This document shows, in pieces, positions 960 to 59,700 of a DNA stretch of 64,000 nucleotides; the first letter of the stretch is position 1, and each line of letters starts with the position of its first letter. A program made the translations under genes and the position numbers. The stretch is from assembly GCA_028534125.1 (NCBI GenBank), contig CM052816.1:18540001-18604000 (forward strand), read 5' to 3'. Source of the DNA: Lama glama. Taxonomy: Eukaryota. Below the pieces are notes generated by a model that searched no databases, was not told where the DNA came from, and saw only the letters and a list, made by a program, of their open reading frames with translations.

Positions 960-1600
960 GGAAAAGTTTTGCACCCCTTAAGTACTGGGGATCTGTTGGG
1001 TCTGGGTTCCTCTTTGGGGGACAACCCGCTTCCAATTCCACATGCCTACTGCCTGGTCCTCGTGATGACTGGGTGCTACTGATCCTGGACAATCAGATGG
1101 CTCTCTCCTTCTGGCAGTCGGTCCAGGGATGGGTATCTGACCCATGAGTATATGGTTTTATGACTCAGAATGCATATAACAATCTACCTCTTTTATCTCA
1201 AGTAGCATGAAGTCATCATTGCCTGTTTTAGAACAAAACCAGGTAGGGGTAAATCAGTGAGGAGAGAGAAGGAAAAAGAGAACAGAGGGAGCTAAGAAGA
1301 TCGAAAGAGACAGACCATGATGACAATCCTGAACCTGTCTACCCTGCCAGTTTACTCCTTAGACTCCCCAGTTGTTTGAGTCAACACATTTCTTTTTAAA
1401 AAAATAATTTTTATTAATTATTATTTTTGACTTTTTTTTGATGGAGGTACTGGAGACTGAACCCAGGACCTTGTGCACGCTAAGCATGCACTCTACCACT
1501 GAGCTATACTCACCCTCCAATACGTTTCTTTTTTTAACTTAAGCTAAGCTAATGTGAGTTAGTTTCTGTCACTGTTAACTAAAAGAATCCTGACTAAGGA
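960..1600 (+). mobile_element. MaLR LTR (MLT1-like), interrupted by the SINE
   Basis: 3' end reads ...ttagtttctgtcactgttaactaaaagaatcctgactaa, typical of old MLT1 LTRs. Confidence 0.55.
1398..1518 (-). mobile_element. tRNA-derived SINE (camelid Vic-1-like) with A-rich tail and target-site duplication
   Basis: Minus strand GGAGGGTGAGTATAGCTCAGTGGTAGAGTGCATGCTTAGCGTGCACAAGGTCCTGGGTTCAGTCTCCAGTACCTCCAT plus A-rich tail; flanking direct repeats AACACATTTCTTTTT (1383-1397) and AATACGTTTCTTTTT (1519-1533). Confidence 0.85.
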
Positions 1601-3274: not shown

Positions 3275-3965
3275 TCTTTTTTTTATTGAATAAAAGATCC
3301 TTTAAATTCTATACTGCTTTACAATTTTCAAAAGTTTCACAACATGATTTCGTATAATCCTGTAATAACCCCCTTTCTCCTCTTACACCCTTTCCTTTCC
3401 CCACCAGTAACCACTAGTGTGTTCTCTATATCTGTGAGTCTGCTTTTTTTTCTGTTTTATTCACTAGTTTGTTGTATTTTTTAGATTCCACATATAAGTG
3501 ATATCATACAGTATTTGTCTTTGAGTTATTTCAATTAGCTTTCCAAGTATATCCACATTACTACAAATGGCAAAATTTCATTCTTTTTATGACTGAGTAG
3601 TATTCCACTGTGTGTGTGTGTACACACAACATCTTCTTTATCCATTTGTCTATTGATGGACACTTAGGTTGCCTTCATATATTGGCAATTGCAAGTAATG
3701 CTGCTATGAAATTGGGGTGCATCTATCTTTTCAAATTAGTGGTTTTGTTTTTTCAGATATATACCCAGGAGTGGAATTGCTGGGTCACATAGGAGTTCTA
3801 TTTTCAGTTTTTTGAGAAACCACCAAGCTGTTTTTCACAGTGACTGCACCAATTTTCATTCCCACCAACAGTGACGAGGGTTCCCTTTTCTCCACCTCCT
3901 CGCCAACATCTGTAATTTGTGTTCTTTTTGATACTAGCCATTCGGACATGTGTCAGGTGATATCT
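3275..3965 (-). mobile_element. L1 3' end (ORF2 C-terminus and 3' UTR)
   Basis: The ORF at 3804-4064(-) contains RYHLTHVRMASIKK...CWRGGGEKGTL, the L1 ORF2 C-terminal motif; poly-T at the left end. Confidence 0.85.
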
Positions 3966-5632: not shown

Positions 5633-5740
5633 AAATTTTTTTTAAATTGAAGCATAATCAGTTTACAATGCTGTGCCAATTTCTGGTGTACAGCTTAATG
5701 TTCCAGTCATACATGTACATACATATACTCCTTTCTTAAT
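5633..5740 (-). mobile_element. Short artiodactyl-type L1 3' terminus
   Basis: ttttaaattgaagcataatcagtttacaatgctgtgccaatttctggtgtacagc. Confidence 0.65.
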
Positions 5741-5859: not shown

Positions 5860-8760
5860 TGACACAATAAACTCCACATGATAGGTTTTGACATATGCAC
5901 ACACCCATGGGACCAGAATCATGAAGTGGACACGTCTAATACCCTCCCAAAAATCTCCCCCCTTTATAGTTCCACCCTCCCATACCTCCCACGCCACCCC
6001 CACCATCCTCAGGCAACTACTGTTCTGCTTTCTGTCAAAACAGATTAATTTGCTTTTTTCCTTTTTTAAAGAGTTTTATATAAATGGATCCATATAGTAT
6101 GTATCCATTTTGGTTGGTTTCTCTATTGAAGCATAATTATTATGAAATTGGAATATTCATGTACAAAATTTTGTTTCTACATGTTTTTCTCTTGAGTAAA
6201 CAGCTAGTAGTGGAATGCCTGGATCATGTATGTGTATGTTTAGTGTTTCAGAAACCCCCACACTGCTTTCCTGCCAGAGTGGTTGTACCATTCTATATCC
6301 CCACCAGCAGTGCACGAGCGTTCCAGTTCCTTCACATTCTTGCCAACACTTGGAATAGTTAGTCTTTTTCATCTAGCCATTCTAATGAATGTGTAGTGAT
6401 ATCTTACTGTGGTTTTAATTTGCATTTCCCTAAAAATTAATGATGTTGAGAATATTTTACCATGAACTTATTTGCAATCCATATATCTTCTTTGGTGAGC
6501 TGTCCAAATCTTTGGCCTATTTACAATAAAATGAGCTGCTTATTTTCTCACTGTTGAGTTTTAAGGGTTCTTTTACAAGTGCTTTATCAGGTATATGATA
6601 TGCAAAGATTTTTCTTTCAGTCCATGGCTTGTCTTTTTATTCTCTTAACAGCATCTTTCAAAGAGCAGTTTTTTGTTTTGTTTTGCTTATTGAAGTATAG
6701 TCAGTTTACAATGTTGGGTTAATTTCTAGTGTACAGCACAGTGATTCAGTTATACATATATTCCTTTTCATATTCTTTTTCATTATAGGCTATTACAAGA
6801 TATTGAATATAGTTCCCTGTGCTATAAAGTAGGACCTTGTCCATTGTTTATGCATTTTATAGTTTCCTCTGGATATATATACCCAGGGATGGGATTGCTG
6901 AATCATAGGGTAAGTCTATTTTTAATTTTTTAAGGAATCTCCATACTGTTTTCCATAATGGCTGCACCAGACTACATTCTCACCAACAGTGTGGGAGGGT
7001 TCCCTTTTCTCCACACCCTCTCCAGCATTTATCATTTGTGGACTTTTTTAGTAATGGCCATTCTGACTGGTGTGAGGTGATACACACTGTAATTTTGATT
7101 TGCATTTCTCTGATAATTAGCAATATTGAGCATTTTTTCATTTGCCTATTAGCCATTTGTATGCCTTCATTGCAGAAATATTTGGTTAGGTCTTCCAAAG
7201 AGCAGAGTGTTAAATCTTGATGGAAGTCATCATTTTTTTTCTTTTATGAATTATGCTTTTTGGTCTCATATCTAAGAAACTTTTGCCTAACTCAAGGTCA
7301 GAAATATTTTCTCCTAGAAATTTTATGGTTTTTAGATTTTACATTTGATCTATGAGCCATCATTAGTTAATTAAAAAATAATAATTCCATTGTGTATATG
7401 GTGGGGGAAATCACTACATTTTTTTCTTTTGGTATATGGATAAAACCAATTATTTCAGCCCCATTTGTTGAAAAGACTACCTTCTCCACTGAACTGCCTT
7501 TGCAACTCTGTCAAGAATCAGTTGCCTAAATATGTGTGGGTCTATTTTTGGAGTCTCTATTCCGTTCCATGATTTATTTGTCTGTCTTCATGCCAGTATT
7601 GCACTATCTTGATAATGTAGTCTTAAAATTGGGTAATGTTAGCACTCCGATTTTATTCTTCTTTTTCAAAGTTGTTTTGGCTAATCTAGTTCCTTTAATT
7701 TTTTTAATATCAATTTTAAAATAAGATTGAATCAGATTGTCAATTTTTAACAACAAAAAGCCAGTTGAGATTCTGACTGGAAGAGTATGGAATCTATAGA
7801 ACCATGTAGACAGAACTGAAAACAACACTGAGTCTTCTGACCCATGAACAAGATATGTTTCTCCATTTATTTAGGTTTTCTTTCATTTGTCTCAGCACTG
7901 TTTTATAGCTTTCAGTCTAGGGTCGTGCACATATTTTACTATATTCAGCCTTAAGTATTTCATAAATTTTGTTGCTATTGTAAATGATATTTTTGAAATT
8001 TTCAACTGTAGTTGTTTATCGATATAAATGAAAATACAATTGATTTTTGTATGCTGATCTTGTATCCTGCAACCTTGCTAAAATGACTTATTAGTTGTAG
8101 CAGCTTTTTGTAGATTCCATCAGATTTTCTACATACACCAATTGTGTCACTGGCCAATAAACACAGGTTCCCTTCTTTCTTTCTGAACTGGATAACTTTT
8201 ATTAATATTATGTAAAAGTGGTAAGAGTGGACATCCCTGTTTGATTCTTCATCTTAGAGGAGAAAAGCCATTCAGTCTTCCACACTTAGGTATGATGTTG
8301 GATGCAGGCCTTTTGCATACGCTCATTATCAGGTTGAGGAAGTTCTCTGCTGTTTCTAGGTTGTTGAATATTTTTAAAATCAGGAATGGATTCTGGATTT
8401 TTAAATGCCTTTTCTGCATCTACTGCTGTAGTTTCATGTGTGTGTGTGTGTATGTGTGTCTGTGCATATATATGTACATATTTTTAAAAGTTTGTTAATA
8501 TAGTGAACTACACGTTAGTTAACCAACTATATGAAGGTTAAATAAACCTTCCATTTCTGGGATAAACCCCATTTAGTCATGATGTATTAACCCATTTACA
8601 GACTACTGGATTCTATTTTCTAAGATTTTGTTTAGGATTTTTACATCTATGATCATAGGGGATGTCAATCTGTTGTTTTCTTGTTATGAGTTTTTCTAGT
8701 GTGGTATTAGAGTAATGTTAATGACATTAAAATGAGATGGCTTCCCCTCGGGTGTAAGCT
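5860..8760 (-). mobile_element. Old L1 (L1M-type) ORF2/3' UTR remnant
   Basis: Degenerate ORF2 peptides (LAKTTLKKKNKIGVLTLPNFK; GTLVHCWWGYRMVQPLW). Confidence 0.85.
6669..7195 (-). mobile_element. Younger L1 3' fragment nested in the older L1
   Basis: IQMANRQMKKCSILLIIREMQIK...CWRGCGEKGTL; flanked by direct repeat CAAAGAGCAG (6659-6668 and 7196-7205). Confidence 0.85.
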
Positions 8761-10925: not shown

Positions 10926-10944
10926 TGCCCACCAGGGGGAGCGC
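10926..10944 (+). promoter_or_regulatory. Candidate CTCF binding site
   Basis: TGCCCACCAGGGGGAGCGC closely matches the CTCF consensus TGGCCACCAGGGGGCGC. Confidence 0.65.
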
Positions 10945-11760: not shown

Positions 11761-12769
11761 AAAGTGTGAGCTTGAAGTCACATAGTTAGGGAGTAGGGGG
11801 AGCTGGATTCCACCCAGGTTGGGGGCAGCACAGTTTCTAGTATAATGGATTTCATCTCTCCTCACTCACTTATTCACTCACCACACCTTTACTGAGTGTC
11901 TATTGTGGACCAGGCACCCTGCTAGCTACAGGGAAACAGTAAAGAGCAAAATGGAAGATTCCTGTCTAGTGTTTACTAATTGTTCGAAATATTTTAAAAG
12001 ACACACTACGCATCACTCTTCCCCTTTCCTGAGAGTTCTAACTTTGGTTCTGTCCCTGAATAACTGTTATTTTTTATAATTCCTAATTTTTTAGTTATTA
12101 ACTCTTGAGTCTCAGCTTATTCATCTGCAAAATGGGCCAAACACTACCAGCCTCACAGTTGTTCTAGTCATTAAATGAGGCAAATAAATGCTTAATCCCG
12201 AACTTGGTGCCTGGTATGTAGTCAATAAACCCAGACACTATTATCCTTGAGGCCTCAGCCTCTGAGTTGGCAATTTACGGGTAATGTCTCCATCTAGCTT
12301 CTGAGTCCTCCAAAAGGAAAGAAGTGTAAATAAAGGGGTGGGATAGGGGAAAGGAGGAACGAGTCACACTACTTTACTCTAGACAGGGATTTTATCCTGA
12401 GCTATGATGCTATACTCTTGGGCCTCTGCGCCCTATCTTTGCTTTCTCCTGGACTGCGAATTCCTGATTAATTCACTCACCTTCCCATGCGAAAACCATT
12501 TGCTGACCAAGAATTCTGTGTCCCCAAGGCCCAGCTCAAGGCCTGACCCAGATATAAAACAGCGGCCTCAGCCCTTGGCAAACTCACACGCTGCCTGTGG
12601 GCTACTTTATAGAGGACCTCAGCTCCTCAGTCCGCTGGCGGACACCCCGAGGGGTTTTTAAGAGAGGACTGCTCAGCCGCCTGCCCTGACCCAGGACCAC
12701 GATCTGCTCACCGCCACCCCGCGTCCTCCCGCCACAGATTCTGGTCCCTTTCTGTGGTTCCGCTGGCAG

Positions 12770-12951
12770 GACGCGGGCGGGGGTGCGCATTGAGAGGCCT
12801 CCCGGACACCTCGGACAAGCTCTCGGTCAGGCAGCCGGGAGAGGGGAAGGACAGGGTGACGCAAACAGCTCGTGGGCGTGGAGCGGTTGCAGTCCGCCCC
12901 CTCCACGTCATTCCGTAATCCTCCAGAGGTTGGGATCCTCGTTAGCCACCC
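12770..12951 (+). promoter_or_regulatory. Upstream elements of the vault RNA gene: CRE-like sites and GC boxes
   Basis: CCACGTCA (TGACGTGG on minus) at 12903-12910; TGACGCAA at 12857-12864; CCGCCCC at 12894-12900; GGGCGGGG at about 12775-12783. Confidence 0.6.
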
Positions 12952-13044
12952 GGGTCGGCTTTAGCTCAAGCGGTTACTCCGTCCCATTGGACTTCTAGTT
13001 CCTATATGGGGGTTCGAGACCCGCGGGTGCTTTCTGACCCTTTT
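12952..13044 (+). ncRNA. VTRNA2-1: Vault RNA family gene, orthologue of nc886/vtRNA2-1 (Pol III)
   Basis: Sequence GGGTCGGCTTTAGCTCAAGCGGTTAC...GGTTCGAGACCCGCGGGTGCTTTCTGACCCTTTT. A box TAGCTCAAGCGG (12962-12973), B box GGTTCGAGACC (13011-13021), terminal stem GGGTCGG/CTGACCC, T4 terminator (13041-13044). Lies beyond the TGFBI 3' end on the opposite strand, as recalled for human. Confidence 0.95.
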
Positions 13045-13399
13045 GCCTACTGAATTAAAATAGAATTTCATCTCTTCAGAAAAATTTAATACTTCCTCTA
13101 TCATTCTTCATTTTGCCCAGTAACATAATTCATCGGTTGATGACAATAAATTGAGGTAGATATGACGGCTGGACGGAGCGCATGGAACGGATCACTCCTG
13201 GGTCCCAAGTTAGCCTGATCCTAGATGGCCGAATGACCAACCTCCGCCGTGAGATAGGATACGTGCCAGCAAAAAAATAGCGCGGGACCCGAAATTAACA
13301 GTTAAGGTCAGAATCTCGGGACCTTCGAGTCACAGTGTGGATAATAAATACTCCAAGTACAACGAGAACGCCTCCAGAACGTAAATACAACCACTGCCA

Positions 13400-13529
13400 T
13401 TTATTTTATCTTTTAAATCGAAGTATAGTTGATTTAGTGTTGTATTAGTTTCTAGTGTACAGCAAAATGACCGTTATAATACATATTTTTCAGATTCTTT
13501 TCCATTATAGGTTATTACAAGATATTGAT
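13400..13529 (-). mobile_element. Short artiodactyl-type L1 3' terminus inside the CpG domain
   Basis: gaagtatagttgattt...tttctagtgtacagc...ccattataggttattacaagatattga; homologous to 6690-6810. Confidence 0.75.
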
Positions 13530-14899
13530 CCCCCCCACCCCCGCGCATATATCACGGTCGGTGAACCACAGTGATACCTCTCCTCCCTTACACCTTAGCC
13601 GCCCCATTTTTCTTTCAGGTCCTGGATCGCCCCGAGTTCCTCCCTTGCAGCCTTGGGGGCTGTACCCACTGGAACGGTCTGCCGTGTGCCTCACTCCCAA
13701 CCAAAAGATTTCTGCTCTTATCCTCCCTTCACACCTTACTGGTTTCCTTCATAATGTCTGCAGGATCTGCAGGCATTGTATGTAATTTGGCTTGATGTGG
13801 GGATAAGCCACGCGGAAGTAGGACCTTCTACCCTGGTAGTACTCACCGCATCTCGTACTTGTAGGCCATACTGAGCGATGGTTGACTTGGTTAATAACGC
13901 GCACACACAAGTACTTTTCAGATTAAACTCCTGGAAGTGGAACTGCCATCTTCAGGGCTTTAGAAACGCACTTCGGATGTTCCCTCCAGAAAGACCAGAT
14001 TAAGATGGGGAGGGGCCTTGGGTCTCAGGGGATGAAATCCCGGTGGCTCCAGGGAAGAGGAGACTGGGCTCTCAAGGGGGAAGCGGGGGGTGGTCAGGGC
14101 CACAGAGAGGTTCTCCTGGGGATGCTCTCGGGCAATAGTTCCAACTTTCCTCTGGACCCTGCATCGGTAGGGACCACCTACCAGCCGGCCTTGCCTTCCA
14201 CCCGCCTTGGCTTTGAAATCTTTTGATCACACCACGGGCATTCGATCACACCAGGATGTATCCCGCTTTCGAGTCTTTTCAGGGTTGCTGCCCCACCTCC
14301 TCAGTGAGCACTGATCAGCCCGCAGCAGCCGCAGCTCAGGCCTGCGCCCCACCCCCATGCCTTCCTCTGCAGTCACTGAGAACACATTCCTTTGGTTTGC
14401 GCCCCAGGCATAAAGAATTCCTGGGACCGCGTGCCCTCAGGCGATGGACAACCAGGCCTCTTGTGGCCTCACTATGTGCCTCAAGCTGGCAGGTATGGAG
14501 AAAACCTTCAGGGGCTCGAGCACCCCATACACCCTAATAAGCCACAGGATCCTCAAAGGGGCCTAGGAACAGCCGACATCCCGCAAGCAAACACCTCCAC
14601 CTGAGGGAGAGACCTGGCTCAGAAAAAGGAGCATCTCTCTCTCCACCCACCCACTCACCATGGAACCTTGGACCTCGCAAAGGAGAGAAACTGAGAGGCG
14701 AGCTTGTAGAGCTGGCCCCAGCTTGGAAGCTGAGCTATTAGCAGTCATGTGGGGAGGGGGATGGGAGAGGAGGGGAGGGATTAAACTGGACATCAGTCAA
14801 TACTTATTTTCTAATCTTACATGAAGAACACAAATTACTGAACTGTAAAGCAAAACAAATGGCAAACCCTTCCTGCTTTGGTTCAGACGACTTCTCCAC

Positions 14900-20299: not shown

Positions 20300-22500
20300 A
20301 GGTTCCTGATGACATTCACATGGTCAAATCCAACGGGGACACCAATGATTTAACATGGCTGATGCTCCCTCCTTCTTGAATGCTTCTCCTCTGTTGTCTT
20401 CCAGGCCTCCTCACATAACTTCTCAGGCCCTTTTGCAGGTTTCTCTTCCTCTATGGAGCCTTCAAATGCTGGAGCAATCCTAGGCTGTGCCCCAGGCACT
20501 CATTTTCTCTATGTTTTCTCACTAGGTGATCTCACCCAGTCGTGGGTTTTGAATAACATCTAGAGTATCTGATGATACCCAAACACCCCATCTCAGGCCT
20601 GACCTCTTCCCTGAACTCTTGGCCTGGATATCTAAAAGCCTTCTTGACAGCCCACTTGGATGTTTAATGACTTCTCCACTGTAAACTATCCAAAGCAGAA
20701 CCCTTTCTTTTCTTTTGCTGGCAGTTTCTACCTTCTTTTTCTGCATTTTAGAAAAAATGGCACCACCTCTTAGCAAGCTGTTCAAGGTGAAATCATTAGC
20801 ATCCCTCTTAAATTCTCCCTTTCTCTCACACCTTTTCTCCAACCCATCTTCAAGTCCTATCTGTTCTACCTTCAAAATATACCTCAACTCCTTCCATGTC
20901 CTTCCATCTCTAGGGCCACAGCCCTGGTCCTCCATCATCTCTTGCTCGGATGACTATAATGGCCTCCTGACAGGTTTCCCAGCTTCCACTCTTACCATCC
21001 ACCCCAATCTATCTTCCACACTGAAGCCAAAGCAATCTTTTAAAAATATACTAGAAAATTAAGAAAATAATCCCATTTGTAGTAGCATTAAAAAAAAAAA
21101 AAACCAACAGACAACTTGAGGATTAACATAACCAGGCTTCTATGAAAGACTTATACACTGAAAAGTGCATACCATTGCTGAAAGAAATTAAAGAAGACAC
21201 AAATAAATGGAAATATAACCTGTATTCATGGATTGGAAGACTTAATATTGCTCAAATGTCAATACTGCACAAAGTGATCTACAAATTCAATATTACCCCT
21301 AAAAAAAATCCCAAAGATTTTTGTGCAGAAAAGGAAAAATCCATCTCAAAATTCATCTTGAATCTCAAGGGACCCTGTGTAGCCAAAACAATCTTGAAAA
21401 AGAGGAACAAAGTTGAATGACTCACATTTCTTGATTTCAAAACTTACTATAAAGCTATAGTAAGCAAAACAATGTGGTTCTGGCATAAAGACTGACATGT
21501 AGACCAATAGAACAGAGAGCCCAGAAATAAAGCCTTGCATATATGGCCAAATGATTTTGAACAAAAGTCACCAAGACCATTCAGTGGGGAAGAATGTGGA
21601 GAAACTGGAACCCTGATGCACTGCTGGTGGGAATGTAAAATGGTGCAGCCACTATGGAAAACAGTTTCTCAAAAAATTAAAAATAGATCCAGCAGTTCCA
21701 TTTCTGGGTATACACCCACAAGAATGGAAAGCAGGAATATGGTATTTATACGCTCATATTCATAACAGCATTATTCACAATAGCCAGAAGCTAGAATCAA
21801 TCCAACTGTGCACTGATGAATGAATGGACAAACAAAATGTGGTATATAAACAATGGAGTATTATTCAGCCTTAAAAATGAAGGAAATTCTGACACATGCT
21901 ACTATGAGGAAGAACCCTGAAGACATTATGTGAAGTGAAATAGGCTGGTCACAAAAGGACAAATACGGTACGATTCTATTTATATCAAATACCTAGAGGA
22001 GTCAAATTCATCAAGAGAGAAAGTCAAACAGTGGTTACCAGGGGCTGGGGAAAGGGAGAATGAGGAATTAGTGTTAATGGATGTAGTTTCAGTTTTGCAA
22101 GATAGAAGAATCCTGGGGATTGGTTGCACAACAATGTGAATATATGTGATGCCACTGTACACTTAAGAAGGGTTAAAACGGTAAATTCCATGCTACGTAT
22201 ATTTACTACAAAAAAAAAATTCTGATCATGGCACACCTCTCCCCATCTCTCTCCCATGAGTAAAACCCTCCAGGGCTCCTCACTGTCCTAAGGATAATGT
22301 CTAAAATCCTCACCACAGTCCCATGGACAGGCGAGGTCTGGCTCCCACACATCCATCTCAGCAGAGGAACCTTCCCTCCTCTCTGCACTCTGGCCGCACA
22401 GATCTCCCCAGCGCGTGCCTCAGAGCCTTGATGCACACTGCTCCTTCAGCCCAAATTCTCTTCCCCAGCCCCTCATTCTTCAGGCCTCAGTGTCAACTCA
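20300..22500 (+). mobile_element. L2 element split by an L1 insertion
   Basis: L2-like sequence at 20300-21045 resumes at about 22222 (ctgatcatggcacac...). Confidence 0.65.
21046..22220 (+). mobile_element. L1 (L1MB-like) ORF2 fragment, 3' UTR and A tail
   Basis: MKDLYTEKCIPLLKEIKEDTNKWK...SWIGRLNI (L1 ORF2); ETGTLMHCWWECKMVQPLWK; A tail at 22210-22219. Confidence 0.9.
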
Positions 22501-25759: not shown

Positions 25760-26352
25760 GCATATGTTTCTTTGGTTTTATTATTACAAACACACCATGG
25801 CTCTGCCACATCTGGGGAATCCTGAGCTCTGTATGCTCTGTCTACCCTCTCTTTTCTACCTGGACAAGGTCACATAGAAGGGTCCAAGCCACGTTGCAAG
25901 AAGCGTTTGACAGAGCAGTTCAACTCATAGCTTATAAGGATGCCATTTCTCCAGCTGTGAAAGAACCTTACAAAAACCATGCCACGATGCCCCAGGATGC
26001 TGGGTTGCTTGACTCATGTTTTGTGAGCATCACAAAACTTTGGCTCCCTATTCCAGAGGGCTTGGCATAGGCAGGAAACTCCACATTTGGGGCAAGTCTT
26101 TCTGGAAGTCAATGTCAGGCAGTGACACCCGGGTCTCTGCATGCAGTGGACTAACAGCCACGTTTAGGGGGAAAAAATTAAAAGTGTAACTCTCCCTCCT
26201 CCCCCCACCCACCCAAGGCTCAGATCTCATTATGGTGTGGCCCATGTACATTGAAGTGTGATATTTGGTTTAAAAAACATTCAGTCTCTTTGGCAAACTG
26301 AGAGAAACTGGCGGGGAGCTGCTGAAATGCATTCCTCCTGCGGTCTTTCGCC
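25760..26352 (-). other. TGFBI: TGFBI 3' UTR (about 590 nt)
   Basis: Lies between the stop codon and the AATAAA signal; cleavage site inferred about 15-20 nt after the signal. Confidence 0.8.
25777..25782 (-). terminator. TGFBI polyadenylation signal AATAAA
   Basis: Minus strand reads ...TAATAATAAAACCAAAGAAACATA, followed by GT-rich downstream sequence. Confidence 0.85.
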
Positions 26353-57519
<31,167 letters not shown>

Positions 57520-58559
57520 GGAGCGAGAGGCCGCGCGGACCGGGCGAGCGGCTGGGGGAGTGCGAGCGCCGCCGCCGCCGGCAGGTTAAGTAAGCGGAGC
57601 GCAGGGAGCCGCCCGAGGGGCGGGGAGCGGGAGGAGGGCGGGCTGCGGGCTCACTGCGCCCCCGCCTCCCGGCCCGGCCCGCCCCGCTCCCGCCCGCTCC
57701 CCCTCGACGCCCACGCCTCGCTCTCCTCCGCCCCGATCGTTCACAACCAGCCCCCTCTCTCATCCTCTGTGCCGGCCTCCGACAGGCTTGCAGGCACCCG
57801 GGGCTACAGGTCCTCCGGGAAGGGGAGGCAGTAGGGAGAGGCAGCGCCACACACTACTTCACTGTCTCCTTGATCTCTGCAGGGTCCTGAGCCCAAAGGT
57901 CCCTCGCTGGTCTCGGTCTATGCTGATTTCTGCAATACTGTCCCATCACACTTGCCTCTGCATTCCACGAGCACCCCTCTGCTCTCTCAGGCTTGATAAC
58001 TTTAAGACTGATAAGGAGGAAAGCTTACGATTGACAGAAGCCAAAAAAAAAAAAAATTGGGGGTAGATTTTGTTAGACTTCAAGCTACTCTTGGAAACCG
58101 TGGAGAAGGGTGGGGTCTGTCCATTCGTACACATTCTCTGTCTCTTTTAATAAACGTCAGTGCAATACTACATGCCAGAGGATGCTGCAAAGAGATAGAA
58201 AATGCAAGATTTCTGCCCTGAGGGAACTCAGAGCAAGTAAACAAATAGTCACCTGGGAGGAGGTAAGTACTCACCCAAGCACCTATTAATCACCCACCAA
58301 CTACCTGTCCCTGCTAGCCCCGGGCGACAAAGACGGATGAGTGAATGCGATCCAGGCTTTTTCTGAAAAGGCTCACAGTTGGGAGACCCACAGACCGTAA
58401 ATAATGTGCCATGGGGAGGGGCAGCTGGGGCCTTGGGAGCCTGGAGCAGGCACTGGGCCCTGACAGGATATGACACTTGCTCTAGGCCAGAAGGGTGAGA
58501 AGAAGTTAGCCAGGCAAAATGGTGTGCATTCTGGGTTCTCAAGGTGTCCGACTGGCTGA

Positions 58560-59700
58560 AGAATGGGGAGGTAGAGTCAAGGATAGAGAGAAGGGAAGGT
58601 ATGTCACAGGGCCCAGACCCCAGCCAAGTCCTGCAGGTGATGGAGAAGCAGGTCAGTGTCAGGAGCAGGTGAGGAGAGGATCAAATCAAACAAGGCAAGA
58701 CTGGAGGGAGGAAGGTCAGCTGATCAAGAGGGGACCAGGTGAGAGCTTAATCGGTGGTACTGGAGGTGGGCATGAAGAAAGGTGGCACACTGAGGGGTGT
58801 CCAGGAGGTCACAGACTTGGCAGAACTTGGGGGCTGTACCTCAGGAGTAGGGGGAGGAGGAGGAGGATTCAGGGATGACTAAGGTGCTATTATAGGCAGG
58901 TGCATCTTGGTGGATGGTGGTACCATTCCTAGAATGAGGGACATGGAGAGGGGCAGCAAATTTGCCAGGAGAGGTTAAGTGGTTTGGGACACATTGAGTT
59001 CGAGGTGCTTGTGATTCATCCAGGGGTCTTGTGGGCAGCTGAATATAAAGATCTGGGACTCCAGCGAGGATTCTGGGATGGAGATCCAGACATGGGAGTC
59101 ATCCTCAGCTGTAAGTGGCTGAAGCTGTGGGAGTGGGTGGATTCTCTGGGGGGCACAGGGAGTAAGAGGTGGGTGATGACAGATGACGGAGAGGAGGCAT
59201 GGTAGAGAGAAGCCAGCAAGGAGGTGAAGGAGTGCTGACGGAGAGTGGGAGGAAACGGGGGAGCTCCAGCAGGACAGGGCTGTAAGCAGTGAGTACCACT
59301 GCACACCAGATAGATCTGAAGCGCATCTGCTGTGTGGGAAACAGAGAGGTGCTGGGGAAGGCAGGAGGATGAGGCCAGACAATGGTGTTTTAACTCTTTC
59401 AGGAAGACTGAGAAGGGAAAGGGGGAGTCAGGGTGGAAGCTAGGGGACAGAATCAAGAGAGGCTTGACTCCCACTCCTATGGGAGTGAGGCATGACTCCA
59501 GGTGTGTTTGCATTGTGCCTGACAAGCCATCCTCATTTCTGGATGGAGATGTGCAGGAGGGAGCTGCTTTCAAAGGTCTAGAGTTCAGGGGAGGTGTGAG
59601 GACTGGAGATGCTGACTGGAGTCACCACACTAACCCTAACCCAAACCTAACCCTAACCTAACCCTAGCTAAAGCCCTGGATTTGGGCAGGCTCCCTCAGG
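58560..59700 (-). mobile_element. L2 fragments upstream of TGFBI
   Basis: gtttgggacacattgagttcgaggtgc...ggagatccagacatgggagtcatc, an L2 body signature. Confidence 0.55.
59630..59666. repeat. Short interstitial telomere-like array (CCCTAA)n, degenerate
   Basis: ctaaccctaacccaaacctaaccctaacctaacccta. Confidence 0.8.

Follow-up and report, generated by a model that had tools for sequence, protein, structure and literature searches.

A camelid vault RNA gene downstream of TGFBI, almost certainly orthologous to human VTRNA2-1/nc886

The locus and its vault RNA gene

The window, by which we mean the whole stretch of 64,000 nucleotides analysed here, contains a small gene of the vault RNA family and, on the opposite strand, the protein-coding gene TGFBI. 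The vault RNA gene is 93 nt long and occupies 12952-13044 on the forward (+) strand, exactly the coordinates and strand given in an earlier note on this DNA. In a cmscan search of the whole 64-kb window, the Rfam Vault family (RF00006) matches this interval on the + strand with 75.3 bits (E 2.4e-15), covering model positions 1-99 of 99. The gathering score of RF00006 is 34 bits, so the gene scores more than twice the cut-off, and the comparison with the Vault covariance model that the earlier note had proposed gives a match over the full model. Two Rfam matches were found in the 64 kb in total, the other being a marginal tRNA-like one (see the last section). The earlier note had also read from this interval a 93-nt unit with an A box, a B box, a 7-bp terminal stem and a TTTT run, and cmscan, pattern search and folding all bear this out. 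The parts of the gene are as follows.

12952-12958 (+), RNA nt 1-7: 5' arm of the terminal stem; 7 bp with one G-U, pair probability 0.99-1.0
12962-12973 (+), RNA nt 11-22: internal A box (pattern match), with an extra A as in human nc886 that is absent from the Rfam consensus
12982-13011 (+), RNA nt 31-36/55-60: central 6-bp helix enclosing the apical hairpin; pair probabilities 0.86-0.97
12989-13002 (+), RNA nt 38-51: apical hairpin; pairs 38-51 and 39-50 at 0.84, pair 41-47 at 0.69
13011-13021 (+), RNA nt 60-70: internal B box (pattern match)
13034-13040 (+), RNA nt 83-89: 3' arm of the terminal stem, pairing with nt 1-7 at probability 0.99-1.0
13041-13044 (+), RNA nt 90-93: predicted T-run terminator (T4) of RNA polymerase III (Pol III); the human gene likewise ends in T4

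The combination of A box, B box and T4 run, for which both strands of the window were scanned with patterns taken from the tRNA consensus, occurs only once. The sequence and fold features that mark the vault RNA family are present in the gene, namely both internal boxes, a T-run, pairing of the 5' end with the 3' end and a variable central domain, and it looks intact, as had been claimed, with boxes, stem and T4 run all in place. The next T4 run is found at 13111, 67 bp beyond the terminator, and a read-through RNA would be about 163 nt long. Self-comparison at E 1e-8 revealed no second copy of the vault RNA gene in the window, and no poly(A) tail is present 3' of the gene. A scan of metagenome contigs for orthologue loci with a two-part pattern returned 0 loci.

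TGFBI, SMAD5 and the lineage of the genome

57519-26353 (-): TGFBI coding exons in 17 segments (tblastn map), convergent with the RNA gene and the anchor of synteny

Exon 1 of TGFBI lies at 57519-57385 (-) and matches PDB entry 5nv6 (E 1.5e-17), the stop codon is at 26355-26353, and poly(A)-like signals follow at 25782 and 25388. TGFBI is intact. Its stop codon is separated by 13.3 kb from the RNA gene, which is on the opposite strand and points towards TGFBI.

The TGFBI protein was compared exon by exon, with five residues trimmed at each exon end and matches below 80% dropped, against 20 of the 142 proteins returned, one of which (dromedary) is from a camelid. It differs from dromedary TGFBI at 0 of 480 sites, and the 19 other proteins differ at between 5 and 27 sites over 394-480 compared. 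The identity to dromedary at 480/480 sites indicates that the genome is camelid, in line with the earlier suggestion of a probable camelid. Identity in exon 1, or tblastn identity summed over the gene, is uninformative on lineage, ruminants likewise reaching 100% in exon 1.

SMAD5 is not in the window: none of the 120 open reading frames of at least 45 aa in 1-12900 matches any Pfam family. In human, SMAD5 starts about 50 kb from the gene, that is, beyond the 13 kb which lie to the left of the gene here.

At the far end of TGFBI there is a promoter CpG island at 57000-58000, where intron 1 holds a CTCF-like motif (57105-57118) that has one mismatch. Upstream of TGFBI, 59630-59666 is a short telomere-like array in which a 6-nt unit is repeated imperfectly 6.5 times.

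Predicted fold of the RNA

The RNA is predicted to fold as a panhandle, made up of the terminal stem, the central helix and a small apical hairpin, with 28 pairs and a longest unbroken helix of 7 bp. The apical stem is bulged. The folding energy is -35.7 kcal/mol (z -2.29); this is only modestly unusual, with 5 of 200 shuffles folding equally well, and the opposite strand has a similar energy (z -2.16). As the energy is modest and both strands are alike, it is the covariance-model score that excludes chance, and folding energy was rejected as proof of function. Folded in isolation, the apical hairpin reaches only -2 kcal/mol (z -0.28), a weak value, and an isolated 29-nt piece prefers a pairing other than the apical hairpin.

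Upstream elements, CpG content and CTCF-like motifs

10929-10942 (+): CTCF-like motif 2,010 bp upstream, with one mismatch; putative orthologue of the telomeric site in human
12541-14020 (no strand): patch of about 1.5 kb that surrounds the gene and has retained its CpGs; observed/expected (o/e) CpG >0.6, against a window average of 0.25
12857-12863 (+), -95 to -89: distal CRE-like site (motif); in human at -99 to -93 (by eye)
12906-12910 (-), -46 to -42: proximal CRE-like half-site (motif); the human offset is identical (by eye)
13943-13956 (-): weak CTCF-like motif with two mismatches, about 900 bp downstream; at chance level (21 matches against 20.4 expected)

Two CRE half-sites within 100 bp have a probability of about 0.002 at the density found in the window. 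When aligned by eye with the human upstream sequence (S1 File of PMC8926257), the promoter stretch spanning both CRE-like sites matches in 45 of 61 columns. Vault genes that are transcribed are described as having the proximal CRE-like element, and pseudogenes as lacking it (PMC7058938). No TATA-like motif lies nearer than -399 of the gene; human VTRNA2 is likewise reported to be without a TATA box, unlike VTRNA1 (PMC13404743).

Of 106 segments of 600 bp, the two with the highest CpG o/e fall in this patch and exceed the TGFBI promoter. CpG o/e is 0.85 across -189 to +82, the span given for the human CpG island (PMC10218354). The stretch 13000-13600 is AT-rich (GC 0.37-0.49) yet has a CpG o/e of 0.93-1.0, which is unusual for a mammal and suggests long protection from germline methylation. 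The human nc886 differentially methylated region is reported to span 1.6-1.9 kb and to be free of methylation in sperm (PMC10965113, PMC6304996); the human region is imprinted, with maternal methylation and two CTCF sites as its bounds. Guinea pig, by contrast, has methylation near 0%.

One-mismatch matches to the CTCF consensus occur twice in the 64 kb, the upstream motif at 10929-10942 being one of them. Coordinates given in PMC8926257 (S1 Table) put the human telomeric CTCF motif about 2,030 bp upstream of the gene and the centromeric site about 860-875 bp downstream. The camelid downstream motif was rejected as proof of a primate-type boundary because motifs of this quality are as frequent as expected by chance.

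Comparison with human nc886 and vtRNA1

The human nc886 sequence was taken from Table 1 of PMC11349216 and its flanks from S1 File of PMC8926257; every comparison between human and camelid sequence was made by eye, and the identity figures are counts of this kind and not computed values. Human VTRNA2-1/nc886, also named pre-miR-886 and CBL3, is 101 nt long against 93 nt in the camelid, the difference being in the central domain, which has 31 nt in place of 39 (8 shorter). The two arms are very similar by eye, with 24 of 26 positions identical over nt 1-26 and 35 of 36 over the last 36 nt (59/62 together). The central domain has around 20-24 matches, for an overall identity of about 78-82% by eye, depending on how the gaps are placed. 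Inside this otherwise drifted domain, nt 38-43 are identical and in register (by eye). The segment after them is three nucleotides shorter (camelid 44-51, human 44-54), giving a shorter apical loop and a bulged stem.

The two genes end in T4, start with the same seven nucleotides and carry an additional A in the A box, and both lie beyond the 3' end of TGFBI on the opposite strand, which is where the VTRNA2 locus has been described (PMC7058938, PMC10491885). A published 5' primer for human nc886 has one match in the window, at 12951-12973, with 0 expected; its 2 mismatches fall at nt 8-9. At these two positions the camelid gene agrees with the Rfam vault consensus and with the 5' end of human vtRNA1, as implied by a control oligo in PMC13076579, and not with human nc886. 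The RF00006 consensus and vtRNA1 share with the camelid gene the panhandle, the A and B boxes and the T-run as well as nt 8-9; the camelid gene differs from vtRNA1 by the additional A of its A box. VTRNA1 has a TATA box and is flanked by ZMAT2 and the protocadherin cluster (PMC7058938, PMC13404743); the camelid gene has neither nearby.

Taking together the arms, the primer match, the promoter, the CpG patch and the CTCF spacing, the sequence comparison indicates that the gene is almost certainly the camelid orthologue of human VTRNA2-1/nc886. The earlier proposal of an nc886/vtRNA2-1 orthologue downstream of TGFBI is thus upheld by the Rfam match, the TGFBI map and the likeness to human.

VTRNA2 in other mammals

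Vault RNA genes are reported at two loci whose synteny is kept in most mammals, with VTRNA2 dating from the eutherian ancestor (PMC7058938, PMC10491885, PMC9179338, PMC13404743). Table S3 of PMC8904404 lists orthologues in dog (98 nt), cat (99 nt), tree shrew (102 nt) and guinea pig (102 nt), which belong to the same family and locus as the camelid gene and are all longer than it. The cat gene is listed there with 81 matches to human, and the likeness of the camelid gene to human is about equal. The same table has no camelid entry and marks pig, rabbit, mouse and hamster as lacking VTRNA2; the listing of mouse agrees with the earlier note, which held nc886 to be absent in that species. With VTRNA2 reported across eutherians and tabulated for these four non-primates, a non-primate copy is to be expected. 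A reading of the gene as hidden or surprising is therefore not supported, and a routine Rfam scan also finds it at more than twice the cut-off.

In other reports nc886 is called evolutionarily young and confined to primates, guinea pig and squirrels (PMC8926257, PMC10965113), a limitation which the camelid copy contradicts. The rule given for nc886 in PMC8926257 is at least 80% similarity to human with the 5p, 3p and loop segments present. The camelid gene, at about 78-82% by eye and with a shortened loop, sits around this limit, and the claims of restriction probably result from an identity rule of 80%, which orthologues whose central domain is shorter would fail. In PMC8926257, 65 amniotes are aligned in the S1 figure, and a camelid may be among them. 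Among the literature matches listed, none reports nc886 or VTRNA2 in camelids or livestock, which is weak evidence of absence. As both the gene family and the locus were already known, the camelid gene in itself is a matter of annotation and of modest importance. The primary survey of vault RNAs (Stadler et al. 2009), which the papers on a eutherian-wide VTRNA2 all cite, may already include a camelid.

Proposed function and alternative explanations

Judged from its sequence elements, the gene is most probably a working Pol III gene. Human nc886 is reported to need both its boxes and upstream sequence for transcription and to be silenced by methylation (PMC10218354), and it is from this that we infer transcription of the camelid gene. 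TFIIIC would bind the internal A and B boxes, and the CRE-like elements upstream, lying in an unmethylated CpG patch, would assist. The product would be a panhandle RNA of about 90-93 nt ending at the T4 run, most likely acting as a structured protein ligand.

For a classical activator of PKR the threshold is a helix of about 30 bp. The longest helix of the camelid RNA, at 7 bp, is too short for this and the apical strand is kept, so the likeliest single role would be to bind and damp PKR. The camelid 5' apical strand, nt 38-43, is conserved by eye and paired in the predicted ensemble, and the loop is shortened. Work on human nc886 assigns strong inhibition of PKR to one conformer, conformer 1, and there to the apical stem-loop (nt 36-63); both this conformer and the strong inhibition are lost when nt 44-48 of the loop are altered (PMC5340918). 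A review places the PKR contact at nt 40-42 and the requirement for OAS1 recognition at nt 40-50 (PMC10914904). A motif of 9-10 nt common to human nc886 occurs once in the window, at the apical hairpin. As 1.2 chance occurrences are expected across the window, it is notable only by its position; within the 31-nt domain about 2e-4 are expected, a figure computed after the motif had been seen.

On the sequence side, the segment after nt 43 is shorter, the stem bulged and the isolated hairpin weak, and for these reasons we give damping of PKR by the camelid RNA roughly even chances at best, with an effect probably weaker than that of human conformer 1. The loop that is tied in human nc886 to strong PKR inhibition and to OAS1 activation is altered in the camelid RNA, and activation of OAS1 would be less likely than damping of PKR. 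A 2026 preprint states that several reported vault RNA phenotypes failed to reproduce (PMC13404743). The combined explanation, a working VTRNA2 orthologue whose RNA is a PKR ligand, is the best one available and has slightly better than even chances of being right.

A transcribed VTRNA2 orthologue could instead serve as an ordinary vault RNA, associated with TEP1 and the vault particle and overlapping with or replacing vtRNA1, with a PKR/OAS1 role arising later, in primates, and needing the longer loop. This is a possible though clearly less likely reading. It fits the shortening of loop 5 and the agreement of nt 8-9 with the Rfam consensus and the 5' end of human vtRNA1 and not with nc886. 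Some lineages, dog included, are reported to have retained a vault RNA at just one of the loci (PMC10491885), and human vtRNA2-1 is described as rising upon removal of VTRNA1, a compensation between the loci (PMC13404743). However, the part of the variable domain that has been conserved is the block linked to PKR, and the upstream region is free of TATA-like motifs as far as -399, as in human VTRNA2 and unlike VTRNA1.

It is improbable that the gene is orthologous but silent or decaying. Loss of VTRNA2 is common, given its listed absence in pig, rabbit, mouse and hamster (PMC8904404), and a repeat-like fragment lies 370 bp downstream of the gene. Against decay, the boxes, stem, terminator and both CRE-like sites are intact, the arms have stayed at 59/62 by eye while the central domain drifted, and CpGs have been kept across 1.5 kb.

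Mammals do have vault RNA pseudogenes (PMC7058938) and SMAD5 was not found in the 13 kb to the left, but a retrocopy or vtRNA1-type copy placed near TGFBI by chance is very improbable, because a retrocopy would not carry the upstream promoter sequence, CTCF spacing and CpG patch which here match the human VTRNA2 locus, and there is no poly(A) tail 3' of the gene.

Returning to the working orthologue with a PKR-binding RNA, the conserved block is the reported PKR contact and the loop differs, making the camelid RNA a natural variant with which to ask whether control of PKR and OAS1 is ancestral or specific to primates. A bolder and rather unlikely extension is that the whole nc886 unit, with its PKR-contacting hairpin, CRE promoter, CTCF flanks and germline-protected CpG domain of 1.5 kb, predates the split between primates and camelids, with the camelid gene being a natural loop variant and perhaps a model for imprinting. 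Were this so, nc886 would not be evolutionarily young, and the camelid RNA would be a short-loop variant provided by nature for testing which nucleotides PKR and OAS1 need. Camelids might then also show allele-specific methylation and so provide a non-primate model, the lack of which has been reported.

Repeats and other elements in the window

The second Rfam match in the window is a tRNA-like element at 1442-1513 (-), which scores at the Rfam threshold (29.5 bits) and is present in a single copy in the window. A tRNA gene at this position was rejected, since ARAGORN finds no tRNA in the window, and the element is probably a SINE derived from a tRNA, such as the camelid vic-1 (a camelid SINE name according to PMC3531059). 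A compound AT/AC microsatellite lies close by at 1710-1770.

Interspersed repeat fragments at 3568-3962, 5646-5717, 6211-7138 and 21584-21894 are 66-82% identical to one another, and we take them to be old LINE-1 pieces. The repeat-like fragment at 13417-13528, which resembles a LINE-1 3' end, is inside the CpG patch and is 80.5% identical to 6689-6806; it has 2 CpGs, against 0 in that copy.
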